A DNA stretch of 64,000 nt, taken from a bacterium GBS-1. Lineage in GTDB: Bacteria > Synergistota > GBS-1. This document shows, piece by piece, positions 4,418-51,334 of this stretch. A model generated the notes under the pieces. The model saw only the letters and a program-made list of their open reading frames with translations, was not told the origin of the DNA and made no database searches. The stretch is from NCBI GenBank assembly GCA_001443005.1, contig LEKQ01000001.1, forward strand, positions 594,542-658,541. The letters are read 5' to 3'. Position 1 is the first letter of the stretch. Each line of letters starts with the position of its first letter. The position numbers and the translations under genes are program-made.

Positions 4418-5571
4418 ATCGTCGGACCTATTCTGGTTATCGCGAACTCACCATGACCAAGCTGCTCTGACTTAGTCATCTTTCCATTTATCACAGAAAG
4501 CATTTCCTTTATGATTCTGCGCCCAACCTCTTCAACCGTTTCGATCCCCAGTATTATAGTTCCTGCATTGATATCTATGTTATCGGACATCCTCTCCCAA
4601 GTCTTGGGATTACCAGTAATCTTTATAACCGGAGCAATGGGGCAACCAACGGGTGTTCCCCTTCCCGTGGAAAAGAGAACCAATTGAGCTCCACCTGCCA
4701 CCATGCCGCTCACCGACTGAACATCATGCCCTGGCGTATCCATTATCCACAGCCCTTTGCCCTTAGGCTGCTCCGCATATTCAACCACGCCTTGAATTGG
4801 AGACCTCCCAGCCTTAAGGATGCAACCAAGGGATTTTTCCTCTATCGTCGTTATACCACCTTCAATGTTGCCTCTCGTCGGCTGAGTCCCTCTTAAATCG
4901 ACGCCCATCTTCAAAGCGTCCTCTTCAGCTCTCTTTACGATCTCGTATATACGCTTAGCTACATCTTCGTTAACCGCTCGCTTGGCCAATATGTGCTCCG
5001 CCCCTATAAACTCGGGGGTCTCCGATAATATCGACGTTCCACCCGAGCTAACCACGAAGTCCGAAGCAACTCCCATGGCAGGGTTCGCCGCTATCCCAGA
5101 GGTGGCATCCGAACCACCGCACTCAAGAGCAATCACGATATGGGATAGATCTATGACCTCCCTCACCATCCCAGACAGATCCGAAAGCATGCTCTCAGCT
5201 ATGGCTATCCCCTTATCTATAGCCCTTAAGGTTCCACCTTCTTCCTGAATCACCAGGACCTCGACCTTCTTCCCCGACTCCGATATCCTCTCAGCCAACA
5301 TATAGGGATCGAGCTTCTCGCATCCGAGCCCAACCACCAGAACCGAAGCCACGTTGGGATTCTTACCAACCCCAACAAGGGTCCTCAGGGTTTGCTCATA
5401 GTCAACGCCAAGCTGTCCACATCCCTCATTATGAGTTATAGACACGCTTCCAGGAACACTCTTCGATATGGCTAAGACCACCTCATTGCTACAGACAACG
5501 CTCGAAAGTACAAGAAGGTGGTTTCTAATCCCAACTGAACCATCGGGCCTTATATAACCCCATAGTTTCAT
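4414..5571 (-). CDS. UxaA-family dehydratase large subunit (altronate/galactarate dehydratase C-terminal domain; SuyB-like)
   Basis: 385 aa matching the UxaA/GarD C-terminal region; 4-nt overlap with the upstream small subunit gene. Confidence 0.8.
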   Translation of the reverse strand: MKLWGYIRPDGSVGIRNHLLVLSSVVCSNEVVLAISKSVPGSVSITHNEGCGQLGVDYEQTLRTLVGVGKNPNVASVLVVGLGCEKLDPYMLAERISESGKKVEVLVIQEEGGTLRAIDKGIAIAESMLSDLSGMVREVIDLSHIVIALECGGSDATSGIAANPAMGVASDFVVSSGGTSILSETPEFIGAEHILAKRAVNEDVAKRIYEIVKRAEEDALKMGVDLRGTQPTRGNIEGGITTIEEKSLGCILKAGRSPIQGVVEYAEQPKGKGLWIMDTPGHDVQSVSGMVAGGAQLVLFSTGRGTPVGCPIAPVIKITGNPKTWERMSDNIDINAGTIILGIETVEEVGRRIIKEMLSVINGKMTKSEQLGHGEFAITRIGPTM

Positions 5572-13373: not shown

Positions 13374-13597
13374 TCCTCTTCCCCCTCCCGCACCTCAACA
13401 GCATAATCAGGACACCTGAGCTCACAGCTTCTACAACCTACACACATCTCCTCGCGCATAACCCTAACCTTACCATCGCTTGTAAACTCAAAAACCTTCT
13501 TAGGGCAAAACTCTACACATATACCACAAGACTTACACCACTTAGTATTCAGAACAACCTTAAACCTCTTAGTCAAGGCAATCACCCCTTCTTTCAA
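13370..13597 (-). CDS. 2-oxoacid:ferredoxin oxidoreductase delta subunit (2x[4Fe-4S] ferredoxin)
   Basis: 75 aa with two cysteine clusters, CKSCGICVEFCP and CVGCRSCELRCP. Confidence 0.8.
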   Translation of the reverse strand: MKEGVIALTKRFKVVLNTKWCKSCGICVEFCPKKVFEFTSDGKVRVMREEMCVGCRSCELRCPDYAVEVREGEEE

Positions 13598-13602
13598 AGC
13601 GC

Positions 13603-13821
13603 TTAGCCGCCCGACATGATATATGTAACTACTATCTCGTCACCATCCCTAACTATCCTCGAGCTATACTCCCTCCTGGGCAAGACATCCCTATTCAAGA
13701 ACACAGTCATATAAGAGATATCATAACCAAGCTTCTCTAAAAGCTCCCCCACGGTCATCTCACCTTCCAAATTAACTTCCCTATTATTCACCTTAACAAG
13801 CATCTCCTCCATTTCCTCCAA
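13603..13821 (-). CDS. ThiS/MoaD-family small sulfur-carrier-like protein
   Basis: About 66-72 aa ending in GG (…DGDEIVVTYIMSGG); true start probably the ATG giving MLVKVNN... Confidence 0.55.
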   Translation of the reverse strand: MEEMEEMLVKVNNREVNLEGEMTVGELLEKLGYDISYMTVFLNRDVLPRREYSSRIVRDGDEIVVTYIMSGG

Positions 13822-13896
13822 ATAAATTATACTCAGTATACTGTCTACTTCCTAAATCATCAAGGCCACCCTTAAAAGGTATCTTTGGGTTTTTCT

Positions 13897-20783: not shown

Positions 20784-20813
20784 CCTGAACTAAATCGCCT
20801 CCCCCTTAAAACA

Positions 20814-20845
20814 GTGCATGGCAGGAGGAAGAACCTGCCATGCAC
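20814..20845 (-). promoter_or_regulatory. Intercistronic stem-loop between tctC and tctB (copy 1): perfect 12-bp inverted repeat, 8-nt loop
   Basis: GTGCATGGCAGG-aggaagaa-CCTGCCATGCAC read directly from the sequence; no downstream U-tract. Confidence 0.5.
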
Positions 20846-20869
20846 CCATCTCTATCTAAGGGTCCAAAC

Positions 20870-25294: not shown

Positions 25295-25320
25295 TTAGCC
25301 ACAATCCCCCTTTAAAGGCG

Positions 25321-25350
25321 GGGCAAGCTCGTGGGAACGAGCTTGCCCCA
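25321..25350 (-). promoter_or_regulatory. Intercistronic stem-loop between tctC and tctB (copy 2): perfect 12-bp inverted repeat, 6-nt loop
   Basis: GGGGCAAGCTCG-tgggaa-CGAGCTTGCCCC; same position and architecture as copy 1. Confidence 0.5.
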
Positions 25351-25362
25351 AAGAGAATACCT

Positions 25363-30609: not shown

Positions 30610-32493
30610 TTAATCCTCTATAACCATCTTGTGTATAGACCTTATCTCATCGATGAACATAGAAAGAGAGTAAGACATGGTCCTTCCATAGATCCTGCGC
30701 ATCCTACAAGCGGTCATGTATAGTCTATCCATGGCCCTCGTCATTCCAACGTAGCAGAGACGCCTCTCCTCCTCAAGCTCATCACGATTATTGAAGCTCC
30801 TATAAAGCGGGAAAAGCCCCTGCTCCATGCCAACCATAAATACCACTGGGAACTCAAGCCCCTTAGAGGCATGCAACGTCATCATGTTTATCGCATCCTC
30901 AGTGCCCCTCTTAAGGTCCTGATCTGTATATAGAGAGATCTTGTCTAAGAAGGCGGTGAGGGTTAGATGAGGTTCTTCCTCCTCCATACGACTTATAACC
31001 GTTAAAAGCTCCTCAAGGTTCCTTATCCTATCCTCACCCTCATCACCAAGAGAGCGAAGCATATCTATGTAGCCACTTTTTTCAAGAAGCTCTATGAAAA
31101 GCTCCCTCAAGGGAACCTTATCCACCTTCTCCCTGAAACTATCTATCAAGTCAGAGAAAGAGAGCAAGGACTTCTTCACCTTAGACGGTGCTGGAAAGCT
31201 CCTTATACCCTCCCATATGGTTAAATTATTCTCTAACAGATACTCCCTCAGGGAAAGCAACGTTTTCTTCCCTACACCTCTCGAGGGAGTAGAGATGGCT
31301 CTTTCAAGACCTAGAATATCATAGGGCATAACGAGTATTCTCAGATAAGCTAAGGCATCCTTAATCTCCTTCCTCTCATAGAAGCGAACGCCACGGACTA
31401 TCCTATAGGGAAAGCCACTCCTTAAAAAGAGCTCTTCATAAAACCGAGATTGGGCATTGGTTCTATAAAAAAGAGCTATATCCTTGAAGGAATACCCCTC
31501 TTTAGTTAGGGATGATATCTCATCCACGATGAACCTTCCCTCTTCTATATCGCTATCCCCCACGTAGACTACAACCGGTCTACCTCTACCCCTTTCGGTC
31601 CACAGCTTCTTAGGAAATCTACTTTCATTGTTAGCTATAACGCTATTTGCCGCTTCAAGAATCGACTGGGTTGACCGATAGTTTCTTTCAAGGTAAATTA
31701 TCTTAGCATCTGGGAAATCTTCCCTAAAATTAAGTATTATCTTTGGGTCTGCTCCTCTCCAACTATATATAGATTGATCCGGATCACCTACCGCAGTTAG
31801 GTTTCTGCTCCCTGACGATATTATCTTGGTCAAAAGAAACTGAGGCCTATTTATATCCTGATACTCATCGACAAGCACATATTTAAACCTTTTTGTATAC
31901 TTCTCTCTTACGCTGTCCACCCTAAGGAGTTTAAGTGGTTCAAGGAGAAGGTCATCAAAATCAACGAGATAAAGATCTTTTTTCCTTTTCTCATACTCAA
32001 AATATATATCTCCCAAAACCTTATCCTTAGCGGTGTAGGCGATAAACTCCTCTGGAGAAACCATAGAGTTCTTAAGTAAGCTTATTCTGGAAGCACAAAA
32101 CTGAGGAGTTATACCATCCAGCTTGGGGGAAATCTCCCCTATTATCTCCTTTAAAAGCTCCTCTCTGTCATCCTCGTCCAACACTGACACCTTGTGCCCT
32201 TCTGATCTAAGAACCCTAAGCCCGAAGGAGTGAAATGTAGATATAATCATATCCTTTGCCCTTTCACCGACGAGCCTAATGACCCTATCCCTCATCTCAT
32301 CGGCCGCCTTATTAGTGAAGGTAACCGCTAATATCTCCTCTGGAAAGGCAAGCCCCTCAGCCAAGATATAGGCTATCTTATATGTTACTACCCTGGTCTT
32401 ACCGCTACCCGCACCCGCAAGGACTAAAAGGGGCCCCTTCGTATAAGTGACGGCTTCCCTTTGCTCCTCGTTCAACTCCTTAAGAAAGTCCAT
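30610..32493 (-). CDS. UvrD/PcrA/Rep-family ATP-dependent DNA helicase (short form, 627 aa)
   Basis: Walker A GAGSGKTRV, motif Ia TFHSFG, motif II VLVDEYQD. Confidence 0.8.
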   Translation of the reverse strand: MDFLKELNEEQREAVTYTKGPLLVLAGAGSGKTRVVTYKIAYILAEGLAFPEEILAVTFTNKAADEMRDRVIRLVGERAKDMIISTFHSFGLRVLRSEGHKVSVLDEDDREELLKEIIGEISPKLDGITPQFCASRISLLKNSMVSPEEFIAYTAKDKVLGDIYFEYEKRKKDLYLVDFDDLLLEPLKLLRVDSVREKYTKRFKYVLVDEYQDINRPQFLLTKIISSGSRNLTAVGDPDQSIYSWRGADPKIILNFREDFPDAKIIYLERNYRSTQSILEAANSVIANNESRFPKKLWTERGRGRPVVVYVGDSDIEEGRFIVDEISSLTKEGYSFKDIALFYRTNAQSRFYEELFLRSGFPYRIVRGVRFYERKEIKDALAYLRILVMPYDILGLERAISTPSRGVGKKTLLSLREYLLENNLTIWEGIRSFPAPSKVKKSLLSFSDLIDSFREKVDKVPLRELFIELLEKSGYIDMLRSLGDEGEDRIRNLEELLTVISRMEEEEPHLTLTAFLDKISLYTDQDLKRGTEDAINMMTLHASKGLEFPVVFMVGMEQGLFPLYRSFNNRDELEEERRLCYVGMTRAMDRLYMTACRMRRIYGRTMSYSLSMFIDEIRSIHKMVIED

Positions 32494-33268
32494 AAACCTC
32501 TGGTGCCCTGTCCTTAAAGACAGGGATCATCTCCCTGACCTCCTTAACCTTATCTACATTTATCTCTGCAAATATGACCGTTTCAATATCGCTCCCACCT
32601 GCTATAATATCGCCCCATGGGTCGATCACCAGAGAGCTTCCACCAAACACCAGGTCACCCTCCTGACCGCACCTATTAACCCCTATAACATAGCATTGAT
32701 TCTCTATAGCTCTTGCCTGAAGCAGTATCTTCCAGTGGTTTATGCGCGCTAACGGCCACTGGGCGGGAACGAAGATAACCTCCGCTCCCTTCAAGGCGAG
32801 CGATCGAAAAAGCTCGGGAAAACGAAGATCATAGCAAATAGTTAAACCGCATTTCACCCCTTCTAGCTCAAAGAGACAAAGATCACTTCCTCGCTCAAAG
32901 ACTCGATCCTCACCCATAAGCCCAAAGAGGTGTATCTTCCTATAAACCCCAAGGAGCTTCCCCATCCTATTAAATACAAAGGAAGTATTATATATTTTAC
33001 CCTTATCAATAAAGGGGATACTGCCTCCAACTACGTTAACGTTATAGTGGCTAGCAATATCCATTAAAAACTTTAAGGTTTTAGGGTTTTCATTTGACGC
33101 AATTTCTCTTAAGTTCTTAATATCGTAGCTCGTGTCCCACATCTCCGGAAGAATCACGATATCGGGGTTCTTCCCTTTCGTCCTCTCAAGTAAAGCTTTT
33201 ACCCTCTGCCTATTGGCCTCTGGATCACCGAGCTTTACATCAAACTGAAACAAAGCCACTTTAAGCAA
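32480..33268 (-). CDS. Carbon-nitrogen hydrolase (nitrilase superfamily)
   Basis: Catalytic E/K/C context (ILPEMW, KIHLF, ICYDLRFPE). Confidence 0.8.
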   Translation of the reverse strand: MLKVALFQFDVKLGDPEANRQRVKALLERTKGKNPDIVILPEMWDTSYDIKNLREIASNENPKTLKFLMDIASHYNVNVVGGSIPFIDKGKIYNTSFVFNRMGKLLGVYRKIHLFGLMGEDRVFERGSDLCLFELEGVKCGLTICYDLRFPELFRSLALKGAEVIFVPAQWPLARINHWKILLQARAIENQCYVIGVNRCGQEGDLVFGGSSLVIDPWGDIIAGGSDIETVIFAEINVDKVKEVREMIPVFKDRAPEVYGLS

Positions 33269-33332
33269 TTTAATTCCCCCCTCTTAGTATTCGAACTCAT
33301 GAAATATTATATCACCTTTTCGCAAGCCCCCG

Positions 33333-33378
33333 TTGACTTTTAGAGCGCTTTAGATTATATTGATTTTAAAAGCGCTTT
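33333..33378 (+). promoter_or_regulatory. Candidate sigma-70-type promoter of the TAXI-TRAP operon with two AAAGCGCTTT-type palindromic boxes
   Basis: -35 TTGACT (33333-33338), 17-bp spacer, -10 TATATT (33356-33361); box AGAGCGCTTT at 33342-33351 and perfect palindrome AAAGCGCTTT at 33369-33378. Confidence 0.4.
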
Positions 33379-33392
33379 AAGGGGGGATAAGC

Positions 33393-34394
33393 ATGAAAAG
33401 GTTAGCCTTAGCAATTTTGATCGTTGCTTTAGGGTTCTCGCTGTTTGCAGGTACAAGTTTAGCCCAACTTAAGTTTATAGTCATAGGAACAGGTTCAACA
33501 GGAGGAACCTTCTATCCAGCTGGAACCGTCTTAGCGAACACTTTCAACACTTATCTCAAGGATCTGGGAATCAAGTGGTCAGCGCAGGCATCTGGTGGAA
33601 GCATAGAGAACCTATCGATGCTTTCAAGGAAAGAGATACAAATGGGGATAGCAGGAAGCGCACCAGCCTCTTGGGCATACGAAGGCAAGGAAATGTTCGA
33701 GGGAAAGCCAATTAAAAACATCAGAGCTATAACGACCTTGTGGCCGGAGATGACTCAAGTGATATACAGAAAGGACTCTGGGATAAAGCACTGGAAGGAC
33801 CTCAAAGGAAGAAAAGTAGCTGTTGGTCCTGCGGGAAATCCACACTTCTACATGGCATCGCTCCTTAAGGCAACCGCTGATTTGACCTTTAACGACATAA
33901 TTCCAGAATATATGGGATACGGCGATTCGGTAGAAGCCCTCCAAAGCAGACTTATAGATGCAGCTTACCTTTCCGCTGGAATCCCAACACCTGCCGTAGC
34001 CCAAGCCTACGCAGGTAGAGTTCCAGTAGATATGCTTGAGATATCCGATGAAGAGCTCGATAGACTCCAGAAGATAGCGCCTTTCTATGTTAGAGGCATT
34101 ATACCCAAGGGAACTTATCCAGGACAAGACAGAGACCTTAAGGTGGCCGCTAACCCCACGGTCTTGCTTGTGGAAAAGGACCTACCAGAAGATATAGTCT
34201 ACAAGATGGTCGAGGTTATCTACGCAAAGGCACTAGATGAGATAAGAAAACAGCATAAGGCCTTATCTTACCTGAGCTTAGAAAGCGCAACACAGGTGGG
34301 AGGAATTCCTTTCCATCCTGGCGCCATAAAATTCTACAAGGAAAAGGGAATAAAGGTAAGCGAGGATATAATACCTCCAGAGATGAAGAAGTAA
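33393..34394 (+). CDS. TAXI-family TRAP transporter solute-binding protein
   Basis: Signal peptide followed by IGTGSTGGTFYPAG TAXI motif. Confidence 0.8.
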   Translation: MKRLALAILIVALGFSLFAGTSLAQLKFIVIGTGSTGGTFYPAGTVLANTFNTYLKDLGIKWSAQASGGSIENLSMLSRKEIQMGIAGSAPASWAYEGKEMFEGKPIKNIRAITTLWPEMTQVIYRKDSGIKHWKDLKGRKVAVGPAGNPHFYMASLLKATADLTFNDIIPEYMGYGDSVEALQSRLIDAAYLSAGIPTPAVAQAYAGRVPVDMLEISDEELDRLQKIAPFYVRGIIPKGTYPGQDRDLKVAANPTVLLVEKDLPEDIVYKMVEVIYAKALDEIRKQHKALSYLSLESATQVGGIPFHPGAIKFYKEKGIKVSEDIIPPEMKK

Positions 34395-34422
34395 ATTAAG
34401 GTAAGTAAAGCGCTTTCTCTCC

Positions 34423-34462
34423 AAAAGGTGGTGTCGCTAGCTTGAACGACACCACCTTTTTA
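34423..34462 (+). terminator. Rho-independent terminator or attenuator after the TAXI binding-protein gene
   Basis: AAGGTGGTGTCG-ctagcttgaa-CGACACCACCTT followed by TTTTTA; a third AAAGCGCTTT box lies at 34407-34416 just upstream. Confidence 0.6.
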
Positions 34463-34492
34463 TAATTTTACAGATGAGGGGGAATTAAGGGT

Positions 34493-36370
34493 ATGCGCAA
34501 GCTTAGTGGAAAGACAGCAACGTGGGCTTTAATATTTGCCGTTTTCGTTTCCCTATTTCACGTATGGATGAATAGCATAGGCCTAACGGAGATAATAAAG
34601 AAAAACATAGCACATGTATGCTTACTTATGTCTCTTGCATTCCTATACTATCCTGCAACATCTAAATCTCCAAAGGATAGACCCTCCTTATTAGACTGGG
34701 TTTTTTCCTTTATATCTATAGCCATTACTATTTACTTCTTCCTAAGCTATGAGAAGATCATAAAGAGCGTGTTTAACCCAACGACGCTAGACTTCGTCTA
34801 TGGAATAAGTCTTATGATACTGCTTACCGAAGCCTCAAGGAGAGTGGTAGGGGTTCCCCTAACTCTTCTATCTGTTATGTTTCTAGTTTACGCTTACTTC
34901 GGTCCCTACTTTCCCGAGCCCTTCACTCATCAAGGCTATAACTTAAGAAGGATAATCATAAGGATGACCATGACTGACGAAGGTATACCTGGAATAGCGT
35001 TAATGGTATCATCCTCCTACGTGTTCATGTTCGTGCTCTTCTCAAGCTTCCTAAGGGCCAGTGGAACATCGAAGTTCTTCAATGACTTCGCCTCAGCATT
35101 AGCTGGGAAGAGAAGAGGAGGGCCAGCTAAGATAGCTATAGTGGCAAGCGCTTTAACGGGAACCATAAGCGGCAGCGCTCAAGCAAATGTGGTTACGACA
35201 GGCAGCTTCACCATCCCTCTAATGATTCAAATAGGATATAAGCCTTACTTCGCAGCAGCGGTAGAAGCTATAGCCTCCACGGGAGGCATCATCATGCCCC
35301 CCATAATGGGAGCAGCTGCCTTCATAATGAGCTCCTTCTTAGGCGTTCCCTATCTTAAAATAATGTACGCGGGTTTTATCCCTGCCTTACTCTATTACTT
35401 CAGCTTATATCACATGGTTGACTTGGGCGCTGTAAAGTGGGGGCTTGAAGGACTACCACCGGAAAAGCTCCCCAATGTCAAGGATGTGTTCAAGGAAAGA
35501 GGACATATGGTTGTTCCTCTAGTAGCTCTAATAGTCGCACTTATAATGGGCTTCAGCCCTATCATAAGCGCGCTCTTCGGGCTCGCTCTTATACTGATAT
35601 TGGGAAACTTGAGAAAATCAACCAGGATGTCATTAAAAGACATAATAAAGGCGCTTTATGAGAGCGCAATAGATTCTATATCAATCGCGGTAGTATGCGG
35701 TATAGTAGGGTATATCATAGGTGTGGTAGGGATGACCGGCTTGGGTCAGGAAATAGGATACACGATACTCCGTTTTTCTCAGGGAAACTTAACGTTAACC
35801 TTAATCACCTGCATGATAACAGCCATAATCCTCGGTATGGCACTACCTGCAGCTGCCTGTTACATAATAACAGTCACCGTAGCCGCCCCAGCGCTCATGA
35901 TGATAGGGGTTGAGCCATTAGTCGCCCACTTTTTCGCTTTCTACTTCGGAACCATGTCCGCCGTCATCCCACCCGTAGCGCTCACATCCTATACAGCAGC
36001 TGCTATAGCTAAGGCTCCACCAACCAAAGTAGCAATAACGGGACTTGGCTTAGGGATAGCTGGATTAATAATACCTTATCTATATGCTTATAATCCTGTC
36101 TTGCTATTGATAGACTTCTCTTGGGGGAAATTTATTTGGGCTATAGCCTTTAGCTTCGTAGCGCTATACTCTATGGCCATAACTGTGATAGGCGTTATCC
36201 CTTCATCGAAGGAGCTCTCGATCTACGAAAGGGGGATTTTTGGGCTCTCTTCAATATTGATGATGCCTAATTCAAACAACCTTAAGATCCTTGGTCTTCT
36301 CCTTTTCCTAGCAGCCTACATTACTCACAAAAGGCTAAAAAAAACTGATCCTCGAAAACAATTAATGTAA
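34493..36370 (+). CDS. TRAP transporter fused permease (DctQM-like, TAXI-associated)
   Basis: 625 aa polytopic membrane protein immediately downstream of the TAXI binding protein. Confidence 0.8.
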   Translation: MRKLSGKTATWALIFAVFVSLFHVWMNSIGLTEIIKKNIAHVCLLMSLAFLYYPATSKSPKDRPSLLDWVFSFISIAITIYFFLSYEKIIKSVFNPTTLDFVYGISLMILLTEASRRVVGVPLTLLSVMFLVYAYFGPYFPEPFTHQGYNLRRIIIRMTMTDEGIPGIALMVSSSYVFMFVLFSSFLRASGTSKFFNDFASALAGKRRGGPAKIAIVASALTGTISGSAQANVVTTGSFTIPLMIQIGYKPYFAAAVEAIASTGGIIMPPIMGAAAFIMSSFLGVPYLKIMYAGFIPALLYYFSLYHMVDLGAVKWGLEGLPPEKLPNVKDVFKERGHMVVPLVALIVALIMGFSPIISALFGLALILILGNLRKSTRMSLKDIIKALYESAIDSISIAVVCGIVGYIIGVVGMTGLGQEIGYTILRFSQGNLTLTLITCMITAIILGMALPAAACYIITVTVAAPALMMIGVEPLVAHFFAFYFGTMSAVIPPVALTSYTAAAIAKAPPTKVAITGLGLGIAGLIIPYLYAYNPVLLLIDFSWGKFIWAIAFSFVALYSMAITVIGVIPSSKELSIYERGIFGLSSILMMPNSNNLKILGLLLFLAAYITHKRLKKTDPRKQLM

Positions 36371-36399
36371 CGGGAGGATGGGGATACGCTCCTCCCGTT
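36369..36399. terminator. Stem-loop between convergent TRAP permease and glnA (possible bidirectional terminator)
   Basis: AACGGGAGG-atggggatacgct-CCTCCCGTT, 9-bp stem, in the 32-bp gap between convergent stop codons. Confidence 0.45.
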
Positions 36400-36402
36400 A
36401 AT

Positions 36403-37743
36403 TTATAAGATGGGAAGATATCTCTTTACCTCAAACTCGGTCACCTGAGCACGATATATATCCCACTCCTTCTTCTTATTACGGATAAAGCTCTCGAACA
36501 CATGGTCTCCCAAACACTCCCTCACGAGCTCGCTTTTCTCCATCACAGATATGGCTTCCCCTAAGCTTCCAGGGAGTGTCTCTATTCCAAGTCTTCTTCT
36601 CTCCTCATCGGTAAGCTCGTAAACGTCCACCTCCACAGGTGGTGGAGGCTCAAGCCCCTCTTCAACCCCCTTAAGTCCTGCAGCCAACATAACGGAAAAA
36701 GCAAGATAAGGATTACACGCTGGGTCAGGAGCGCGATACTCCACTCGCGCTGCCCTTTCCGTGCCTATTCCAAAGGCGGGAACCCTAACTAAAGCTGAGC
36801 GATTCTTTCTCCCCCAGCATATGTAAGCAGGAGCCTCATAACCGGGTATCAGGCGCTTATAAGAGTTAACCCACTGGCAAGTGATCGCCGTGATCTCACG
36901 AGAGTACTTCAAGAGACCGGCTACAAAGCTAAGCCCTATTCCAGAAAGTCCATAATATCCATTAGGATCATAAAAGGCGTTCCTATCACCCTTAAACAGC
37001 GACTGGTGAACATGCATACCACTACCATTAATTCCATAAACAGGCTTAGGCATAAAGGTCGCATAGACGTTATTCTCTAAAGCCACCTGCTTAACTACCA
37101 CCTTATACGTCATAACGTTATCAGCCATCGTTAGAGCATCTGTATACTTTATATCAACTTCATGCTGGCTATAGGCTACCTCGTGATGACTAAACTCCAC
37201 GCTTATACCCATCTCATTCAACATGAGGACAGTCTGACGTCTGAGATCTATCGCCATATCGAGAGGCGTCGCATCGAAATACCCACCGTAGTCAAGAAAA
37301 TCAGTTCCATCCGAAGATTTAAAGTAAAAATACTCGAGTTCAGGCCCTACATAGTAGGTAAACCCCTTCTCTGCCGCTTTCTTCAGGTTACGCTTAAGAA
37401 CATAGCGTGGGTCTCCCTCAAAGGCTTTACCATCAGATGTTAAGATATCACAAAACATCCTTGCTACCCCGTACTCTTTAGGACGCCACGGAAGGATGCA
37501 AAATGTGGTAGGATCAGGCATAGCGATCATATCGCTCTCCTCAATGCGAACAAAACCCTCAATAGACGATCCATCGAAGCCCACACCCTGTTCTAAGGCT
37601 CCCGGGAGCTCATCCGCCGTTATCGTGAAGCTCTTAAGGAATCCCAAAATATCGGTAAACCAAAGTTTGATGAACTTAATGTTTCGCTCCTTAACAAGTC
37701 TCATCACATACTCCTTAGGATCACCAACCATTTTCATCTTCAT
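36403..37743 (-). CDS. glnA: Glutamine synthetase (short type I, about 446 aa)
   Basis: GS N- and C-domain layout (IKFIKLWFTDILG; GPELEYFYF). Confidence 0.85.
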   Translation of the reverse strand: MKMKMVGDPKEYVMRLVKERNIKFIKLWFTDILGFLKSFTITADELPGALEQGVGFDGSSIEGFVRIEESDMIAMPDPTTFCILPWRPKEYGVARMFCDILTSDGKAFEGDPRYVLKRNLKKAAEKGFTYYVGPELEYFYFKSSDGTDFLDYGGYFDATPLDMAIDLRRQTVLMLNEMGISVEFSHHEVAYSQHEVDIKYTDALTMADNVMTYKVVVKQVALENNVYATFMPKPVYGINGSGMHVHQSLFKGDRNAFYDPNGYYGLSGIGLSFVAGLLKYSREITAITCQWVNSYKRLIPGYEAPAYICWGRKNRSALVRVPAFGIGTERAARVEYRAPDPACNPYLAFSVMLAAGLKGVEEGLEPPPPVEVDVYELTDEERRRLGIETLPGSLGEAISVMEKSELVRECLGDHVFESFIRNKKKEWDIYRAQVTEFEVKRYLPIL

Positions 37744-37858
37744 GACCTCCTTAGCCTAAAGCTGCATTTTGTCAAATTATACCCAGCCAAGTTCACAGAA
37801 GTTTTTCAGGATTGTTACAAATTTGTTTCCTAATAGCGATCAGCAATTAAACTTAAAA

Positions 37859-38566
37859 TCATTCTTCCTCATCACTGAACTTATATCCTATGTTCCTTAC
37901 CGTCTGAATATATTTATGATCATAATCCCCAAGTTTATTTCTAAGCCTACTTATATGAGTATCAACCGTTCTACTACCACCATAATAGTCATAGCCCCAA
38001 ACTTTGTTAAGAAGCTCTTCTCTCGTGAAAACTCTACCCCTATTGGTGATAAGGAGCTTCAAAAGCTCGTACTCCTTAAAGGTTAAGGGGATAAACCTAC
38101 CCCTTAAAATCACCTTATACCTTTCCATGTCTATCATAAGGTCACCGCATCTTATCACCCTTTCATCCTTAAAAGATGAGGATCCCTTCCTCAACAACCT
38201 TCTCACCCTAAGAAATAACTCCTCAGACGATATCGGCTTAACAAGGAAATCCTTAAAAAGATTATCCTCCGCAAGAAAGGCAAAACTCCATTCCTTCTCA
38301 GAAACAAGGGCAACTATAGGAATATCTTTTGATGAAAGAAAGTTTAAGACATCACTCAAAGTGTACTCCATATCGGACAGGGATTCAAAGAGGTCTAAAT
38401 CAACGAGGAATAGGTCAAAAAAGTGTCCTTCCCTCTCAAGCTCATCAAGAAACTCGTCCGGATCCTCAAAAATCATGAGGGCAATACCCTTCCTTGAAAA
38501 CTCCTTTAAAGCATTCCTAAGATCCTCCTTCTTCGCTAAAAGAGCCAGTCTCACAAAAACTACCAC
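37859..38566 (-). CDS. OmpR-family winged-helix response regulator with an atypical receiver domain
   Basis: C-terminal OmpR/PhoB-type DNA-binding domain (TREELLNKVWGYDYYGGSRTVDTHISRLRNKL); receiver retains LVDLDL and KP but lacks the usual N-terminal acidic pair. Confidence 0.7.
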   Translation of the reverse strand: MVVFVRLALLAKKEDLRNALKEFSRKGIALMIFEDPDEFLDELEREGHFFDLFLVDLDLFESLSDMEYTLSDVLNFLSSKDIPIVALVSEKEWSFAFLAEDNLFKDFLVKPISSEELFLRVRRLLRKGSSSFKDERVIRCGDLMIDMERYKVILRGRFIPLTFKEYELLKLLITNRGRVFTREELLNKVWGYDYYGGSRTVDTHISRLRNKLGDYDHKYIQTVRNIGYKFSDEEE

Positions 38567-38596: not shown

Positions 38597-39913
38597 TCAC
38601 GCCTCCAAACTCTCTTCCGCAATACCCAAGAGCTTGGCCACATCCTCATAGTTAGGACCGTAAATGCCTTCAAGTATATTCATAGAAGAGGCCATATAAT
38701 CTAATAGGTCCCTATCGCAGAGCTCCTTTAGCTTTAAATAAACTCTACCATCTAACTTCCCACCTTTTACATCCCTCTCTATTACGCTTAAAGCCTCTAG
38801 GGGGCTCATCTTCGGTCTATAGGGCCTTTCCTCAACTAAGGCGGAAAAAACATCACAAACCTGAAGGATTCTCTGCGATAAACTCAACCTATCACCGGTT
38901 AAGCCCAAGGGATAACCCGTTCCATCGAGCCTCTCGTGGTGAGCAGCGGAGATAATCCCTAGATGCTCTAGACCCGCCCTCTTAAGCATCTCATAGGTAT
39001 CCACCACATGCATACGCATTATTAGAGCTTCAGTATCATCAAGTGGACCCTTCTTATGCAACACCTCAAGAGGTGTTTTGATCTTCCCAACATCATGAAA
39101 CAAAGCAGATATATTTATAAGTTTAGCATCTTCCTCACTTAGTAGCTCCTGAGCTATAATCTCGGAAAACTTGAAAGTTAAAAAGGTATGATTCCTCGTA
39201 TAGGGGCTACGCAAATCGATAAGCGCTGCTATAACCTCAGCGAATCCCTCTATCTCATCCAGTGAAAGCGTTTTAGAGGAGGTAAAGCCCTCGTCATCAT
39301 CAAGAAGAGCATTTAAAACCCTGTAGTCCTTTAAGATATCCATGGTAACTCCATTAACTTCCTCCAATGTTCCGGCCTCATTATCCACAAAATGAAAAAT
39401 AGATTTAAACAAATCCGGCTTAAGCTCAGCGTCTTCAGACTTAATATGAGCTATAGAGATCATGTCGGCGATTCTAATGGAGTTTGCAAGTATCCTTATA
39501 AGATCGTCACTCTCATCTATCATCTGATAGGGTGTATGGTGATAGAGGATCGCCTTAGCACACCTCGGACAGAGAGGTTTGACGCGCATAGCGATTAGAT
39601 AGGACAGCATAGGATGGTCGTTAGATTTATCAAAAGTTAAAACTAACTTTTCCAGATCTGAAAAGTTTCTAAACATATCCTTAAAGAGTTCGTAATTCAT
39701 CAGCGAAGCTTTAACAGCAAGGCCGATATCGTGAAACAACCCCGCAAGATACGCGCAATCAAGATCAACGGATAAAGCTAACCTTTTTAAGATCTCTCTC
39801 GTTATCTTAGCCACCTGAAAGCCATGCCTGATGAAGTTCTTATACTCCAATACACCAAACTCGCGAAAGAGCCTCACCATGGACGCCAAAGGAAACTTAA
39901 GGACGAGCTCCAA
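38597..39913 (-). CDS. Tandem HD-domain protein with C-terminal HD-GYP (putative c-di-GMP phosphodiesterase)
   Basis: First HD (LFHDIGLAV, HHTPYQ), second HD-GYP (LFHDVGKIKTP, HHERLDGTGYPLGL). Confidence 0.75.
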   Translation of the reverse strand: MELVLKFPLASMVRLFREFGVLEYKNFIRHGFQVAKITREILKRLALSVDLDCAYLAGLFHDIGLAVKASLMNYELFKDMFRNFSDLEKLVLTFDKSNDHPMLSYLIAMRVKPLCPRCAKAILYHHTPYQMIDESDDLIRILANSIRIADMISIAHIKSEDAELKPDLFKSIFHFVDNEAGTLEEVNGVTMDILKDYRVLNALLDDDEGFTSSKTLSLDEIEGFAEVIAALIDLRSPYTRNHTFLTFKFSEIIAQELLSEEDAKLINISALFHDVGKIKTPLEVLHKKGPLDDTEALIMRMHVVDTYEMLKRAGLEHLGIISAAHHERLDGTGYPLGLTGDRLSLSQRILQVCDVFSALVEERPYRPKMSPLEALSVIERDVKGGKLDGRVYLKLKELCDRDLLDYMASSMNILEGIYGPNYEDVAKLLGIAEESLEA

Positions 39914-40060: not shown

Positions 40061-40089
40061 TAGACACATCTTTAGGTCTATGATATAAT
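40061..40089 (+). promoter_or_regulatory. Candidate near-consensus promoter directly upstream of the histidine kinase gene
   Basis: -35 TAGACA (40061-40066), 17-bp spacer, extended -10 TGaTATAAT (40081-40089); predicted start site within a few nt of the GTG at 40098. Confidence 0.4.
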
Positions 40090-40097
40090 TTAAAACC

Positions 40098-41570
40098 GTG
40101 TGGATTAGGCTTAGAACTGGAATCAGAACAAGGATCATTCTCTTAACCCTCTTTATGGTTTGCGTTCTCCTTGTTTCGGGGTGGCTAAATGTGAAGCTAT
40201 TTAGCAGGGCAACGGAGACGATGATGTCCCTTTCCGAAGAGAGGAGTACACTAGACTACATTAGAACTCTAGAGGAAATTTTAGAAAGACTAAGGGTAGA
40301 TTTCGAGATATTAGCTTTAATTAGGGATGGTTGGCTACCCCCCACACTTAAAACGCTCCAGGAAGTCGAAGCTTATGTAAGAATTATCGAAGAGAAGGAA
40401 GCCATTGAAGAAAGCTTAAGGGAGGCTTTCCATGAGCTTAAAGGCCACATAACGGGTTTAACCCCTCCCTTTGATGATAAAAAGTTCAGGGAAGCTAACA
40501 AGCTACTAAAACAATTAAGAGAATCCGTAGAGGAATTATCACACAAAGTAGAAGCCAAGATTATAAAGATAGAAGCGAACTTTAGAACATTCCTTGAGAG
40601 CTCAAGAAGACTATCTTGGAACATTCTAATAGTAGCTATGATATTTACTACCATTTTAGCTTACCTTATAGTAAGGGAACATATGAAAACTAGCCTCGCT
40701 ATAGTTAACCATCTTAAGAACATAACCAGTCAGATAAAGAGTAACTCCTTCCCTGTGATTCCCCCTCCGTTGAAGGCAATGCTACCCGAAGGGGAAAAGA
40801 TAGCCGAATACATAAATGAGCTTGTTAACCAACACAATATAAGCCTTAAAAGGATTAGGGAACTAAGCGAAGCCAAAACCGCCTTCCTGGCGATAGCGTC
40901 TCACGAAACTAAAACACCCTTAACCTCGATAATCGGCTACTCGGAGATACTCCTAGAGGAAGATATCCCTCCTAAGCTTAAGGAGAAACTCACCATCATA
41001 AGATCTCAAGCTCAGACTCTACTTAAAACGATGGAAAGGATGCTATCCTATTCAAGGCTCGGCTCCGACATCAACCTATCTAAAGTAAATTTAAGGGAAC
41101 TCCTAGAAAAGGTTGGAATGGAATTTGTGGAAAAAGCGAGAGAAAAAGGAATAGATTTCAAGATTAATATACTAAGTAATAATACGACCATAGAAACTGA
41201 CCCCTATAGGCTCGAGATAGCCTTAAGGGAGATCTTAGATAATGCCTTTAAGTTTGCCCAAAATGGTTACATAGAATTAACGTTGAAAATTATCAAAGAT
41301 CGTGCTATCATAGCTGTAAAAGATAGCGGTCCCGGAATAGAAGAAGACAAAAAAGATATGATATTTGAACTCTTCTACCAAGGAGAGGGCTTCTTAACTA
41401 GAAAGCACAGCGGCTTAGGTTTGGGTTTACCCTTAGCTTTAAGAGCTATTAACGGTATAGGAAAGATCACCTTTAAAAGCCAAAAAGGGAAGGGTAATAC
41501 CTTCTATATAATCCTCTACGGAGGGGGGATCTTAAGTTGGTCAAGCTCACGAGAAAACTCGAAACCATAG
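40098..41570 (+). CDS. Sensor histidine kinase (two TM segments flanking an extracytoplasmic region; HisKA + HATPase_c)
   Basis: H-box ASHETKTPLTSIIGYSEIL; C-terminal G-box GLGLGLPLA; hydrophobic segments at aa about 10-30 and about 160-185. Confidence 0.8.
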   Translation: MWIRLRTGIRTRIILLTLFMVCVLLVSGWLNVKLFSRATETMMSLSEERSTLDYIRTLEEILERLRVDFEILALIRDGWLPPTLKTLQEVEAYVRIIEEKEAIEESLREAFHELKGHITGLTPPFDDKKFREANKLLKQLRESVEELSHKVEAKIIKIEANFRTFLESSRRLSWNILIVAMIFTTILAYLIVREHMKTSLAIVNHLKNITSQIKSNSFPVIPPPLKAMLPEGEKIAEYINELVNQHNISLKRIRELSEAKTAFLAIASHETKTPLTSIIGYSEILLEEDIPPKLKEKLTIIRSQAQTLLKTMERMLSYSRLGSDINLSKVNLRELLEKVGMEFVEKAREKGIDFKINILSNNTTIETDPYRLEIALREILDNAFKFAQNGYIELTLKIIKDRAIIAVKDSGPGIEEDKKDMIFELFYQGEGFLTRKHSGLGLGLPLALRAINGIGKITFKSQKGKGNTFYIILYGGGILSWSSSRENSKP

Positions 41571-48683: not shown

Positions 48684-51334
48684 CCCTTCCCATCTTCGCT
48701 CAGCTTAGCGTGAGCAGCAGCAAGGCGTGCAACAGGAACTCTAAAGGGAGAACAGCTCACGTAGTTTAAGCCTATCTGATGGCAGAACTCTATAGAAGAT
48801 GGCTCTCCACCATGCTCTCCACATATTCCTATCTTAAGGTTAGGTCTGGTCTTCCTACCCTTTTCAACAGCTATTTTCATCAAAGCGCCAACACCATCTC
48901 TATCAAGCACCTCAAATGGGTTATGCTTAAGGATACCCTTCTCTATATACTGTGGCAAGAACTTACCCTCTACATCATCTCTCGAGAAACCAAAAACAGT
49001 CTGAGTCAGGTCGTTCGTACCAAAGGAGAAGAACTCAGCATACTTAGCTATCTCATCGGCGGTTAGAGCTGCTCTGGGTAACTCAATCATAGTTCCGACA
49101 TGGTACTCAACCCTGACGCCCGCTTTGCTCATCTCCTCTTCAGCAACCCTAACCACCATCTCCCTTAAAATCTCCATCTCCTTCCAATGCCCAACTATAG
49201 GAAGCATCACATCTGGAAGCGCCTTACAACCCTCCTTAACAAGCCTAGTAGCCGCCCTAAATATCGCCCTAACCTGCATCTCGTATATCTCCGGGTAGAC
49301 TATACCAAGGCGACAACCTCTAAAGCCAAGCATGGGGTTAGCCTCCTGAAGAGCCCTAACCTTCTTTAAAAGTTCCCTCTTTTCCTCAATAAGCAAAGCG
49401 TTCTTCTCAGGCTCCTTCTCGAGCTCCATGAGCTCCTCAAGTATCTCCCTCTCCTTGGGCAGGAATTCATGAAGAGGCGGATCAAGAAGCCTTATGGTCA
49501 CAGGATAACCTTCCATAGCCTTGAGTATCTCGTAGAAATCTCCTTCTTGCATAGGCAAAATCTCATCCAAAGCGCTTTCCCTTTCCTCCCTCGTCATAGC
49601 CATTATCATTCTCTTAACTGCGGGAAGCCTATCCTCAGCCATAAACATATGCTCAGTACGACAGAGACCTATACCCTTAGCTCCAAACTCCCTTGCCCTC
49701 CTCGCATCTTCAGGCGTATCAGCGTTAGCCCAAACCTGAAGGCGCGCGATCTCGTCAGCCCAAGAAAGAAGCTCCCTAAACTCGGGGCTCATCGATGGCT
49801 CAACCATTGGGACCTCTCCAAGTATAACTATCCCCCTGCTCCCATCTATGGTTATTACGTCCCCCTTCTTAACCACTACATTCCCTACAGTGAAAACCTC
49901 CTTCTCAAGGTCTATGCTTATAGCCTCACATCCAACAACACAAGGCTTACCCATACCTCTTGCCACAACCGCAGCGTGACTCGTCATGCCACCCCTACTA
50001 GTCAATATCCCTTGTGCCGCATAAAGACCATGAATATCATCGGGAGTCGTCTCAGGTCTGACCAAGATCACCTTCTCACCCCTGCTTCCTAACTCGCTAG
50101 CCTCATCGGCAGTGAAAACCACCTTACCACAGGCAGCACCAGGTGAAGCCGGAAGCCCCTTGGCCAAAACATCATATTTGGCGCTCGGGTCTACCTGCCT
50201 ATGAAGGAGGGTCTCAACCTGCTTCGGCGAAACCATCCTTACAGCCGTAGCCTTATCTATTATCCCCTCTTTAACCATATCCACAGCGATCTTCACCGCT
50301 GCCTGAGCGGTTCTCTTTCCAGACCTCGTCTGAAGAAGATAAAGCTTCCCCTTTTCAACGGTGAACTCTATATCCTGAACGTCCTTGTAATACCTCTCAA
50401 GCTGATCGCAAACCCTCTTTAACTCCTCATAAATCTCAGGCAAAGCCTCGGCCATCTTCTCTATAGGAAGGGGCGTCCTTATACCTGCAACCACATCTTC
50501 ACCTTGGGCATTAAGCAAAAACTCACCATATATCTTCTTCTCGCCGGTCGATGGATTTCTAGTAAATGCCACACCTGTTCCAGAGTCATTGCCCCTGTTA
50601 CCGAAAACCATGGTCTGTACGTTAACCGCGGTTCCCATCTCTTCCGATATACCATGTATCTTTCTATAAACCTTAGCTCTCTCGTTGTTCCACGATTCAA
50701 AAACGGCAGCTATAGCCATAAAAAGCTGCTCCCAGACATCCTGTGGAAACTCTTTGCCGGTCTTCTTCTTGACCAACTCCTTATAATCCTCGATGACCTT
50801 CTTCCAAGTTACAGCATCTACCTCAGTATCATACTTAACACCCTTCTCCCTCTTCCATTTCTCTATAATATGCTCGAACTCCTCGTGAGGAATTCCCATA
50901 ACGACGTTCCCAAACATCTGTATGAACCTACGGTAGCTATCATAAGCGAACCTTTCATCACCCGTTTGAGCTATAAGCCCCTTAACCGTCTCATCGTTGA
51001 GACCAAGGTTAAGAATGGTATCCATCATCCCAGGCATCGATACAGGAGCACCAGACCTAACGGAAACCAAAAGAGGATTATTCACATCACCAAACCTTTT
51101 ACCAGTCTTCTCCTCAAGGATCTCCATTTTCTTCCTGACCTCAGGTTCTATCTCTTTTAGAACCTCTTTGCCAAGCTTCAAGTACTTTCTACAAACCTCG
51201 GTTGTAATGGTAAAACCGGGAGGAACAGGTAAGCCAGCTTTTGTCATCTCCGCAAGCCCAGCACCCTTTCCACCAAGCAGAGCCCTTAAACTCTCACTCC
51301 CCTCCTCAAACAGATATATCAGCTTTTCTGCCAT
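48665..51334 (-). CDS. ppdK: Pyruvate, phosphate dikinase
   Basis: N-terminus [12 protein letters not shown], phosphohistidine region [20 protein letters not shown]-terminal PEP-utilising domain; track start at 51373 trimmed. Confidence 0.9.

Follow-up and report, generated by a model that had tools for sequence, protein, structure and literature searches.

A predicted leaky terminator and candidate operator boxes in a TAXI-TRAP operon of the Synergistota bacterium GBS-1

Introduction

Premature termination at stem-loops positioned past binding-protein genes determines how much binding protein is made relative to translocator in the ABC importers of Ruminiclostridium cellulolyticum (PMC9045158). 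A comparable arrangement is described here for a two-gene TAXI-TRAP uptake operon of bacterium GBS-1 (Synergistota), encoded on a 64-kb stretch of contig LEKQ01000001.1 (assembly GCA_001443005.1, positions 594,542 to 658,541). This whole stretch is referred to below as the window and, together with a flank of ~13 kb, made up the ~77 kb of reachable genome sequence. The operon comprises adjacent plus-strand genes for a TAXI binding protein and, behind it, a fused DctQM permease, the partner with which TAXI systems usually pair (PMC5812351). A first-pass annotation of the window had described three palindromic boxes of the AAAGCGCTTT type, of which the two at the promoter were suggested to form a repressor operator, and a hairpin between the two genes that was suggested to attenuate read-through into the permease.

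Promoter-proximal operators combined with distal auxiliary ones occur in the lac (O1/O2) and gal (OE/OI) systems. Further sites that resemble the boxes are the nnntcAAAGCGCTTTgannn motif of the LacI-family regulator AglR (PMC4052901) and the cre boxes of CcpA (PMC3463425). Set beside these systems, the locus is read here, with slightly more confidence than doubt, as a TAXI-TRAP operon with a leaky internal terminator whose boxes would serve as a repressor operator.

A predicted internal terminator between the binding-protein and permease genes

The hairpin described in the first-pass annotation was present, with arms of 14 nt (34423-34436 and 34447-34460) that were 100% complementary, a 10-nt loop, and a following T-rich tail, TTTTTATAATTTT, and the 104-nt intercistronic region folded at -29.5 kcal/mol (z -2.8). 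Its proposed role in attenuating read-through was well supported by comparison with orthologous operons, which were gathered via a protein database and contig look-ups and whose TAXI proteins showed 86, 85, 84, 77, 72, 70, 69, and 66% identity. All eight of these full-length operons carried a GC-rich hairpin of 12-16 bp plus a U-tract in the gap between the binding-protein and permease genes, with z scores of -3.1 to -6.0 against shuffles and stems that ranged from recognizably related to completely different, and the contig of a ninth orthologue ended within the hairpin, leaving it partly visible. Both TctCBA (tripartite tricarboxylate transporter, TTT) operons of the window also displayed a strong GC hairpin directly past tctC and before tctB (25295-25362 and 20784-20869, minus strand), one followed by UGUUUUAAGG and the other by a weak U-run only. 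It is well supported by these comparisons that the hairpin acts as a leaky terminator favoring the binding protein over the permease.

The resemblance to the ABC operons of R. cellulolyticum extends to the leading position of the binding-protein gene, the long, GC-rich stem-loop that precedes the membrane gene and runs into a U-rich tail, the lack of a second promoter-like site in the scan described below, and the conservation of this position across relatives (PMC9045158). The window operon differs in that it encodes a secondary TAXI-TRAP transporter of an uncultured lineage, with termination predicted from sequence. By glycyl-tRNA synthetase, the closest relatives of this lineage (73-80% identity) were metagenome-assembled genomes that bear the label Synergistetes, all others reaching at most 51%. 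The mechanism of the internal terminator is already published and is not new in kind.

Two features of the hairpin weigh against this assignment. Its 10-nt loop lies beyond that of textbook terminators (3-8 nt in common search rules), and a TATAAT hexamer occurs within the terminator tail (34461-34466). A simple terminator scan missed the hairpin because its loop limit was 3-8 nt; loops of the orthologous hairpins spanned 4-10 nt. The TATAAT was without a usable -35 or TG extension, and a promoter scan of 34395-34492 returned no promoter-like site between the hairpin and the permease gene. An internal permease promoter was considered and judged unlikely, as the best -35-like hexamer (TTGAAC) was placed just 13 nt from the TATAAT.

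The sequence directly past box 3, CUUUCUCUCC (34417-34426), was the complement of Shine-Dalgarno sequences rich in G. The minimum-energy fold had the stretch behind this box paired with the permease ribosome-binding site (34476-34483), closing off the terminator hairpin at its base, and such modeled pairing could further lower permease translation on read-through transcripts.

Position and probable non-random occurrence of the palindromic boxes

The three boxes were found by sequence check where the first-pass annotation had placed them (Table 1), two of them at a sigma-70-type promoter that was the joint-best match in a scan of 4.2 kb (32400-36600) and whose hexamers had positional counterparts in the orthologues, TTGAC(G/T/A/C) and a TATAAT-like sequence. 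Box symmetry extended over 10 bp in boxes 2 and 3 and over 12 bp with one mismatch in box 1, with asymmetric flanks throughout, and box 3 was followed by the anti-Shine-Dalgarno-like CTTTCTCTCC. The exact 10-mer was seen three times in 64 kb compared to 0.07-0.26 expected under Markov models of orders 0-4. Sites with at most one mismatch numbered 13 window-wide versus 2.65 in dinucleotide shuffles and about 5.7 under a third-order model, an excess that largely reflects coding-sequence composition. The local cluster of boxes is a stronger signal than this window-wide excess: when the intergenic regions on either side of the TAXI gene were shuffled with dinucleotides preserved, a palindromic 10-mer of any kind occurred twice in exact form in 1 of 5000 shuffles, and any palindromic 10-mer occupied three sites with at most one mismatch in 25 of 5000. 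The boxes were also the sole GCGC tetramers in the intergenic DNA of the window, counted without the window ends and 13374-13896 (523 bp with two small genes). It is unlikely that the boxes arose by chance.

A repeat search revealed that boxes 1 and 2 cannot be counted as separate events, being taken in by a 20-nt direct repeat of period 27 that possibly arose by tandem duplication, and this weighs against an operator. The boxes could be functionless, with boxes 1 and 2 left by a 27-bp tandem duplication of a promoter segment, box 3 a chance match of 10-11 nt, and the promoter and terminator the sole elements of consequence, as exact repeats of that length were not rare in this 1.4-kb region (several other direct or inverted pairs) and a further exact copy of AAAGCGCTTT was located in coding DNA, at 49569 within the pyruvate phosphate dikinase gene. 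The lack of the boxes from orthologous promoters and of a regulator in the genes and flanks searched, both detailed below, favor the same explanation. A duplication leaves the third copy unexplained, however, and the common word is perfectly palindromic and has a GC core amid AT-rich intergenic DNA, to which the rarity of a twice-occurring palindrome among the shuffles and the restriction of GCGC to the three boxes can be added. That the boxes are functionless is on balance unlikely.

Likeness of the boxes to known operators

The repressor-operator reading is plausible, favored by the position of the boxes at the core promoter, their palindromy, the low likelihood that they arose by chance, and a core identical to that of LacI-family operators; their conservation, the length of their symmetry, and the search for a regulator spoke against it. 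The box core AAAG-CG-CTTT fits AAnCGnTT with the central CG step typical of the LacI family and is identical to the AglR core (PMC4052901). The AglR and cre operators share with the boxes an identical 10-bp core with central CG, sites at or beside the core promoter, and more than one site per operon. They differ in being palindromes of 16-22 bp compared to 10-12 bp here, and the target in the window is not a sugar operon, orthologous promoters lack the sites, and no LacI-family gene was present in the ~77 kb.

As in lac and gal, two promoter sites are combined with an identical site ~1 kb downstream within the transcription unit. Boxes 1 and 2 are spaced 27 bp apart, which corresponds to ~2.6 helical turns and is out of phase, the distal site is placed in an intercistronic gap, and binding or looping at the boxes would be hypothetical.

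When metagenomes were scanned for paired boxes at a distance of 10-30 bp, the matches listed were mostly terminator hairpins with AAAGCGCTTT arms and satellite repeats, with a few cases resembling dual LacI-type operators (L173, L156, L124, and L147/L167); the locus of the window itself was not among the matches listed. In favor of an operator, the promoter of L173, which is unrelated to the window, had the same core both within its 17-nt spacer and at a second position downstream, before a different binding-protein gene. One of the satellite-like arrays, L120 (contig Ga0105054_10062080), was likewise unrelated to the window and had a period of ~21 bp with units of GGTGTGTGTAAAAAGCGCTTT.

Conservation of the boxes and search for a regulator

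Several observations weigh against an operator function. The boxes were missing from all nine orthologous promoters that were read (those named being L084, L085, L086, L087, L090, L092, L094, and L220, with L084-L087 additionally covered by a whole-locus pattern search). These included the syntenic 86% orthologue, which retains TTGACG-17-TATAAT and has another palindrome (TGTATAC/ATATACA) after the -10. This absence is weak negative evidence because intergenic sequences have diverged too far among the relatives for alignment. The box symmetry ends at 10-12 bp versus the 16-22 bp of LacI-family palindromes, and no extended box was detected in the other intergenic regions searched. No LacI, GntR, or TetR-type gene was identified among the 54 window genes scanned and in the ~13-kb flank. 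A nearby regulator, envisaged in the first-pass annotation, was represented in the ~77 kb solely by an atypical OmpR-type protein, from a family that usually binds direct repeats.

Other comparisons gave no further resolution. For the 84-86% orthologues, divergence was too great for the intergenic regions to be aligned, and strain variants of 99.9% identity were uninformative, with seven to nine differences in 7 kb, of which none fell in the boxes and the hairpin loop held one. Species-representative genomes, scanned with the protein as guide, reached at best 39% (L001) and 44% (L074) identity and provided no useful promoter comparison.

Other palindromes were observed in the relatives, comprising TGTATACATATACA directly past the -10 in L084 (about 4958-4975) and TATAATGTATATAC in L087 (about 5055-5068). 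A conserved TGTATACTACCATACCA was present in L085 (4835-4855) and L220 (1190-1210) beside a divergent GntR/FCD regulator and a DctPQM operon. The TAXI operons of the 84-85% orthologues adjoin a GntR/FCD regulator, and control of the transporter may fall to regulators that differ between species. The boxes of the window are species-specific and probably functional, with a core like that of LacI-family sites and no partner identified in the ~77 kb.

Direct-repeat and RNA-based alternatives

The 20-nt direct repeats might themselves be the recognized units of a winged-helix response regulator, such as the OmpR-type protein encoded at 37859-38566 together with the kinase at 40098-41570, which would tie the transporter to nitrogen or amino-acid status. 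The direct repeat takes in TTTAGA/TTTAAR sub-repeats spaced ~10-11 bp apart, the only DNA-binding regulator of the window is this OmpR-family protein beside glnA, and in relatives a histidine kinase lies directly past the permease gene (L084) or a regulator-kinase pair upstream of the TAXI gene (L090/L091). The period of 27 bp contrasts with the 10-11 bp typical of the OmpR family, the sub-repeats are AT-rich with low information content, and the promoter is near consensus, so it does not have the appearance of activator dependence. This reading also leaves box 3 without an explanation, and the repeat is unconserved in the orthologues; it is considered improbable.

The boxes may also be viewed as RNA elements, in which box 2 at the mRNA 5' end would pair with box 3 to give a looped short transcript resistant to ribonuclease. 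The segments 33369-33379 and 34406-34416 were perfectly complementary over 11 nt, the duplex had an energy of -14.7 kcal/mol (z -2.1 versus shuffles), and both partners would be contained in the short transcript if it begins at the predicted start of ~33368. Other bacteria offer known examples of 5' untranslated regions interacting with 3' ones, including B. subtilis hbs and S. aureus icaR. Conserved pairing of leader and post-stop regions was evaluated in eight orthologues, for which single-sequence shuffles were suggestive in three, and was rejected on the comparison of matched with mismatched pairings (p = 0.13). The post-stop region of the window paired with the leader of every orthologue via the anti-Shine-Dalgarno-like sequence next to box 3. 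Furthermore, box 1, being upstream of the transcription start, is left unexplained, and 11 bp across 1 kb would be weak and weaker still in a thermophile, a lifestyle hinted at by the purine-rich coding strand. An RNA function of boxes 2 and 3 is regarded as very improbable. The broader proposal that all three boxes make up one species-peculiar system, whether by a repressor loop across the 1-kb gene or by pairing of the mRNA 5' end with the pre-terminator region into a nuclease-resistant loop, is only a little less remote.

Proposed regulation of the operon

The repressor-operator reading is a plausible account of the boxes and the best single explanation of them. In the proposed scheme, a single strong sigma-70 promoter would drive both genes and the hairpin with its U-tract would be a leaky internal intrinsic terminator, such that most transcripts would end past the binding-protein gene, a minority would read through, and far more binding protein than permease would be made. 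The hairpin would probably also shield the 3' end of the short transcript. Two AAAGCGCTTT-type sites would have been acquired in this species, the first inside the promoter spacer and the second where transcription starts, and most likely bind a dimeric helix-turn-helix repressor that is encoded elsewhere in the genome and blocks RNA polymerase, with box 3 as an auxiliary operator or roadblock. The terminator part of this scheme draws on the comparative evidence and a published mechanism, while the operator part is one that we infer.

Operon layout, predicted substrate, and genomic context

The features of the locus are compiled in Table 1. The gene calls of the first-pass annotation were right, with a divergent nitrilase-family gene on the strand opposite to the TAXI-TRAP genes.

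Table 1. Predicted features of the TAXI-TRAP locus, with positions numbered from the first nucleotide of the window.
Feature	Position	Strand	Details or basis
Carbon-nitrogen hydrolase (nitrilase-superfamily) gene, divergent	32480..33268	-	PF00795 E 4.8e-58
Likely extended -10 of hydrolase gene, TGATATAAT	33306..33314	-	Read from sequence
Sigma-70-type promoter of TAXI operon, TTGACT-17 nt-TATATT	33333..33361	+	10/12 matches
Direct-repeat unit 1, TTGACTTTTAGAGCGCTTTA	33333..33352	+	Holds -35 hexamer and box 1
Box 1, AGAGCGCTTT	33342-33351	+	Inside promoter spacer
Direct-repeat unit 2, TTGATTTTAAAAGCGCTTTA	33360..33379	+	Holds box 2; 85% identical to unit 1, 27 bp downstream
Box 2, AAAGCGCTTT	33369-33378	+	8 nt past -10, at predicted transcription start/mRNA 5' end
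Shine-Dalgarno of TAXI gene, AGGGGGGA	33380..33387	+	Read from sequence
TAXI-family TRAP solute-binding protein	33393..34394	+	333 aa; PF16868 4.9e-80, 269.7 bits (cut-off 27); TIGR02122 292 bits (cut-off 84.35)
Box 3, AAAGCGCTTT	34407-34416	+	12 nt past TAXI stop codon, 6 nt ahead of hairpin
Predicted internal intrinsic terminator/stabilizer	34423..34469	+	Folding and inverted-repeat search
Shine-Dalgarno of permease gene, GAGGGGG	34476..34482	+	Read from sequence
Fused DctQM TRAP permease	34493..36370	+	625 aa; PF06808 6.3e-86; TIGR02123 628 bits (cut-off 320.65)
Hairpin at operon end, common to permease and convergent glnA	36368..36400	both	Folding

The N-terminus of the TAXI protein, MKRLALAILIVALGFSLFAGTSLAQ, was read by eye as a predicted signal peptide with a basic start, a hydrophobic core, and an A-x-A motif, and the orthologues had a G-rich Shine-Dalgarno at the matching position before the gene. 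In L087, the call of the 70% orthologue (P0006, 363 aa; 5001-5091) is ~30 residues too long, as the signal peptide begins at an internal ATG (5091) and a TTGACA/TATAAT promoter falls within the called open reading frame.

The best solved-structure match of the TAXI protein was 1us4/1us5 (E 2.2e-50, residues 17-320), which a review presents as the glutamate/glutamine-binding TAXI protein of Thermus thermophilus (PMC5812351). The window operon is similar to this system in combining a TAXI protein with a fused DctQM partner; it differs in that the match is at the level of primary sequence, the ligand is a predicted one, and the neighborhood varies among orthologues, some of which adjoin M20 peptidase or histidine-utilization genes. 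Based on the closest structure, the neighboring glnA, and the M20 peptidase and histidine-utilization genes beside orthologues, the operon probably takes up glutamate, glutamine, or a compound akin to them.

For the divergent hydrolase, the top NCBIfam matches (deaminated glutathione amidase and nitrilase) scored under their cut-offs. Its likely extended -10 was missed by the promoter scan, is accompanied by no recognizable -35, and would place the hydrolase promoter back-to-back with that of the TAXI gene, the hydrolase upstream region overlapping the TAXI -35 and box 1. A protein on box 1 could reach both divergent genes.

The operon end is convergent with glnA, and the hairpin between them folded at -21.3 kcal/mol on the plus strand (z -5.0) and -18.4 kcal/mol on the minus strand (z -5.1), and is probably a shared bidirectional terminator. 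An Rfam search of 32400-37900 returned no RNA families. Past glnA lie the genes for the OmpR-family regulator, an HD-domain protein, and a histidine kinase. The regulator (37859-38566, minus strand), directly upstream of glnA, has a degenerate receiver domain that failed Pfam, where only Trans_reg_C passed, and appeared to be without the usual N-terminal acidic pair. It is preceded by the HDOD/HD-domain protein (38597-39913, minus strand) and faces the histidine kinase (40098-41570, plus strand). An inverted repeat, TAGAC-N10-GTCTA (40063-40082), spans the -35 to -10 of the likely kinase promoter GATATAAT.

The kinase directly past the permease gene in L084 is an orthologue of the window kinase, and the recurrent linkage of kinases and regulators to TAXI operons may be regulatory. 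The locus of the 72% orthologue (L090) also encodes a response regulator and a kinase, and contains two tandem ATATA(A)GGTCTTA units with a period of ~12 bp (about 4885-4915) upstream of the TAXI promoter that look like a response-regulator binding site. Across the window (1-64000) nearly all genes are on the minus strand and the GC skew is strongly negative (about -0.15 to -0.33), and the few plus-strand genes, the TAXI operon among them, are visible as near-zero GC skew.

Implications for binding protein-dependent transport

The boxes would gain importance only by leading to a regulator and its regulon in this lineage; at present they are a testable lead rather than a discovery. If the three boxes did operate as one system, they would add a second layer of control on the ratio of binding protein to permease beyond the terminator alone of the relatives. 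The terminator finding is unsurprising and useful for annotation and for the reading of transcriptomes. The principle that a leaky terminator yields excess binding protein, published for ABC importers, would thereby extend to the TAXI-TRAP and TTT transporters of a little-studied uncultured lineage.

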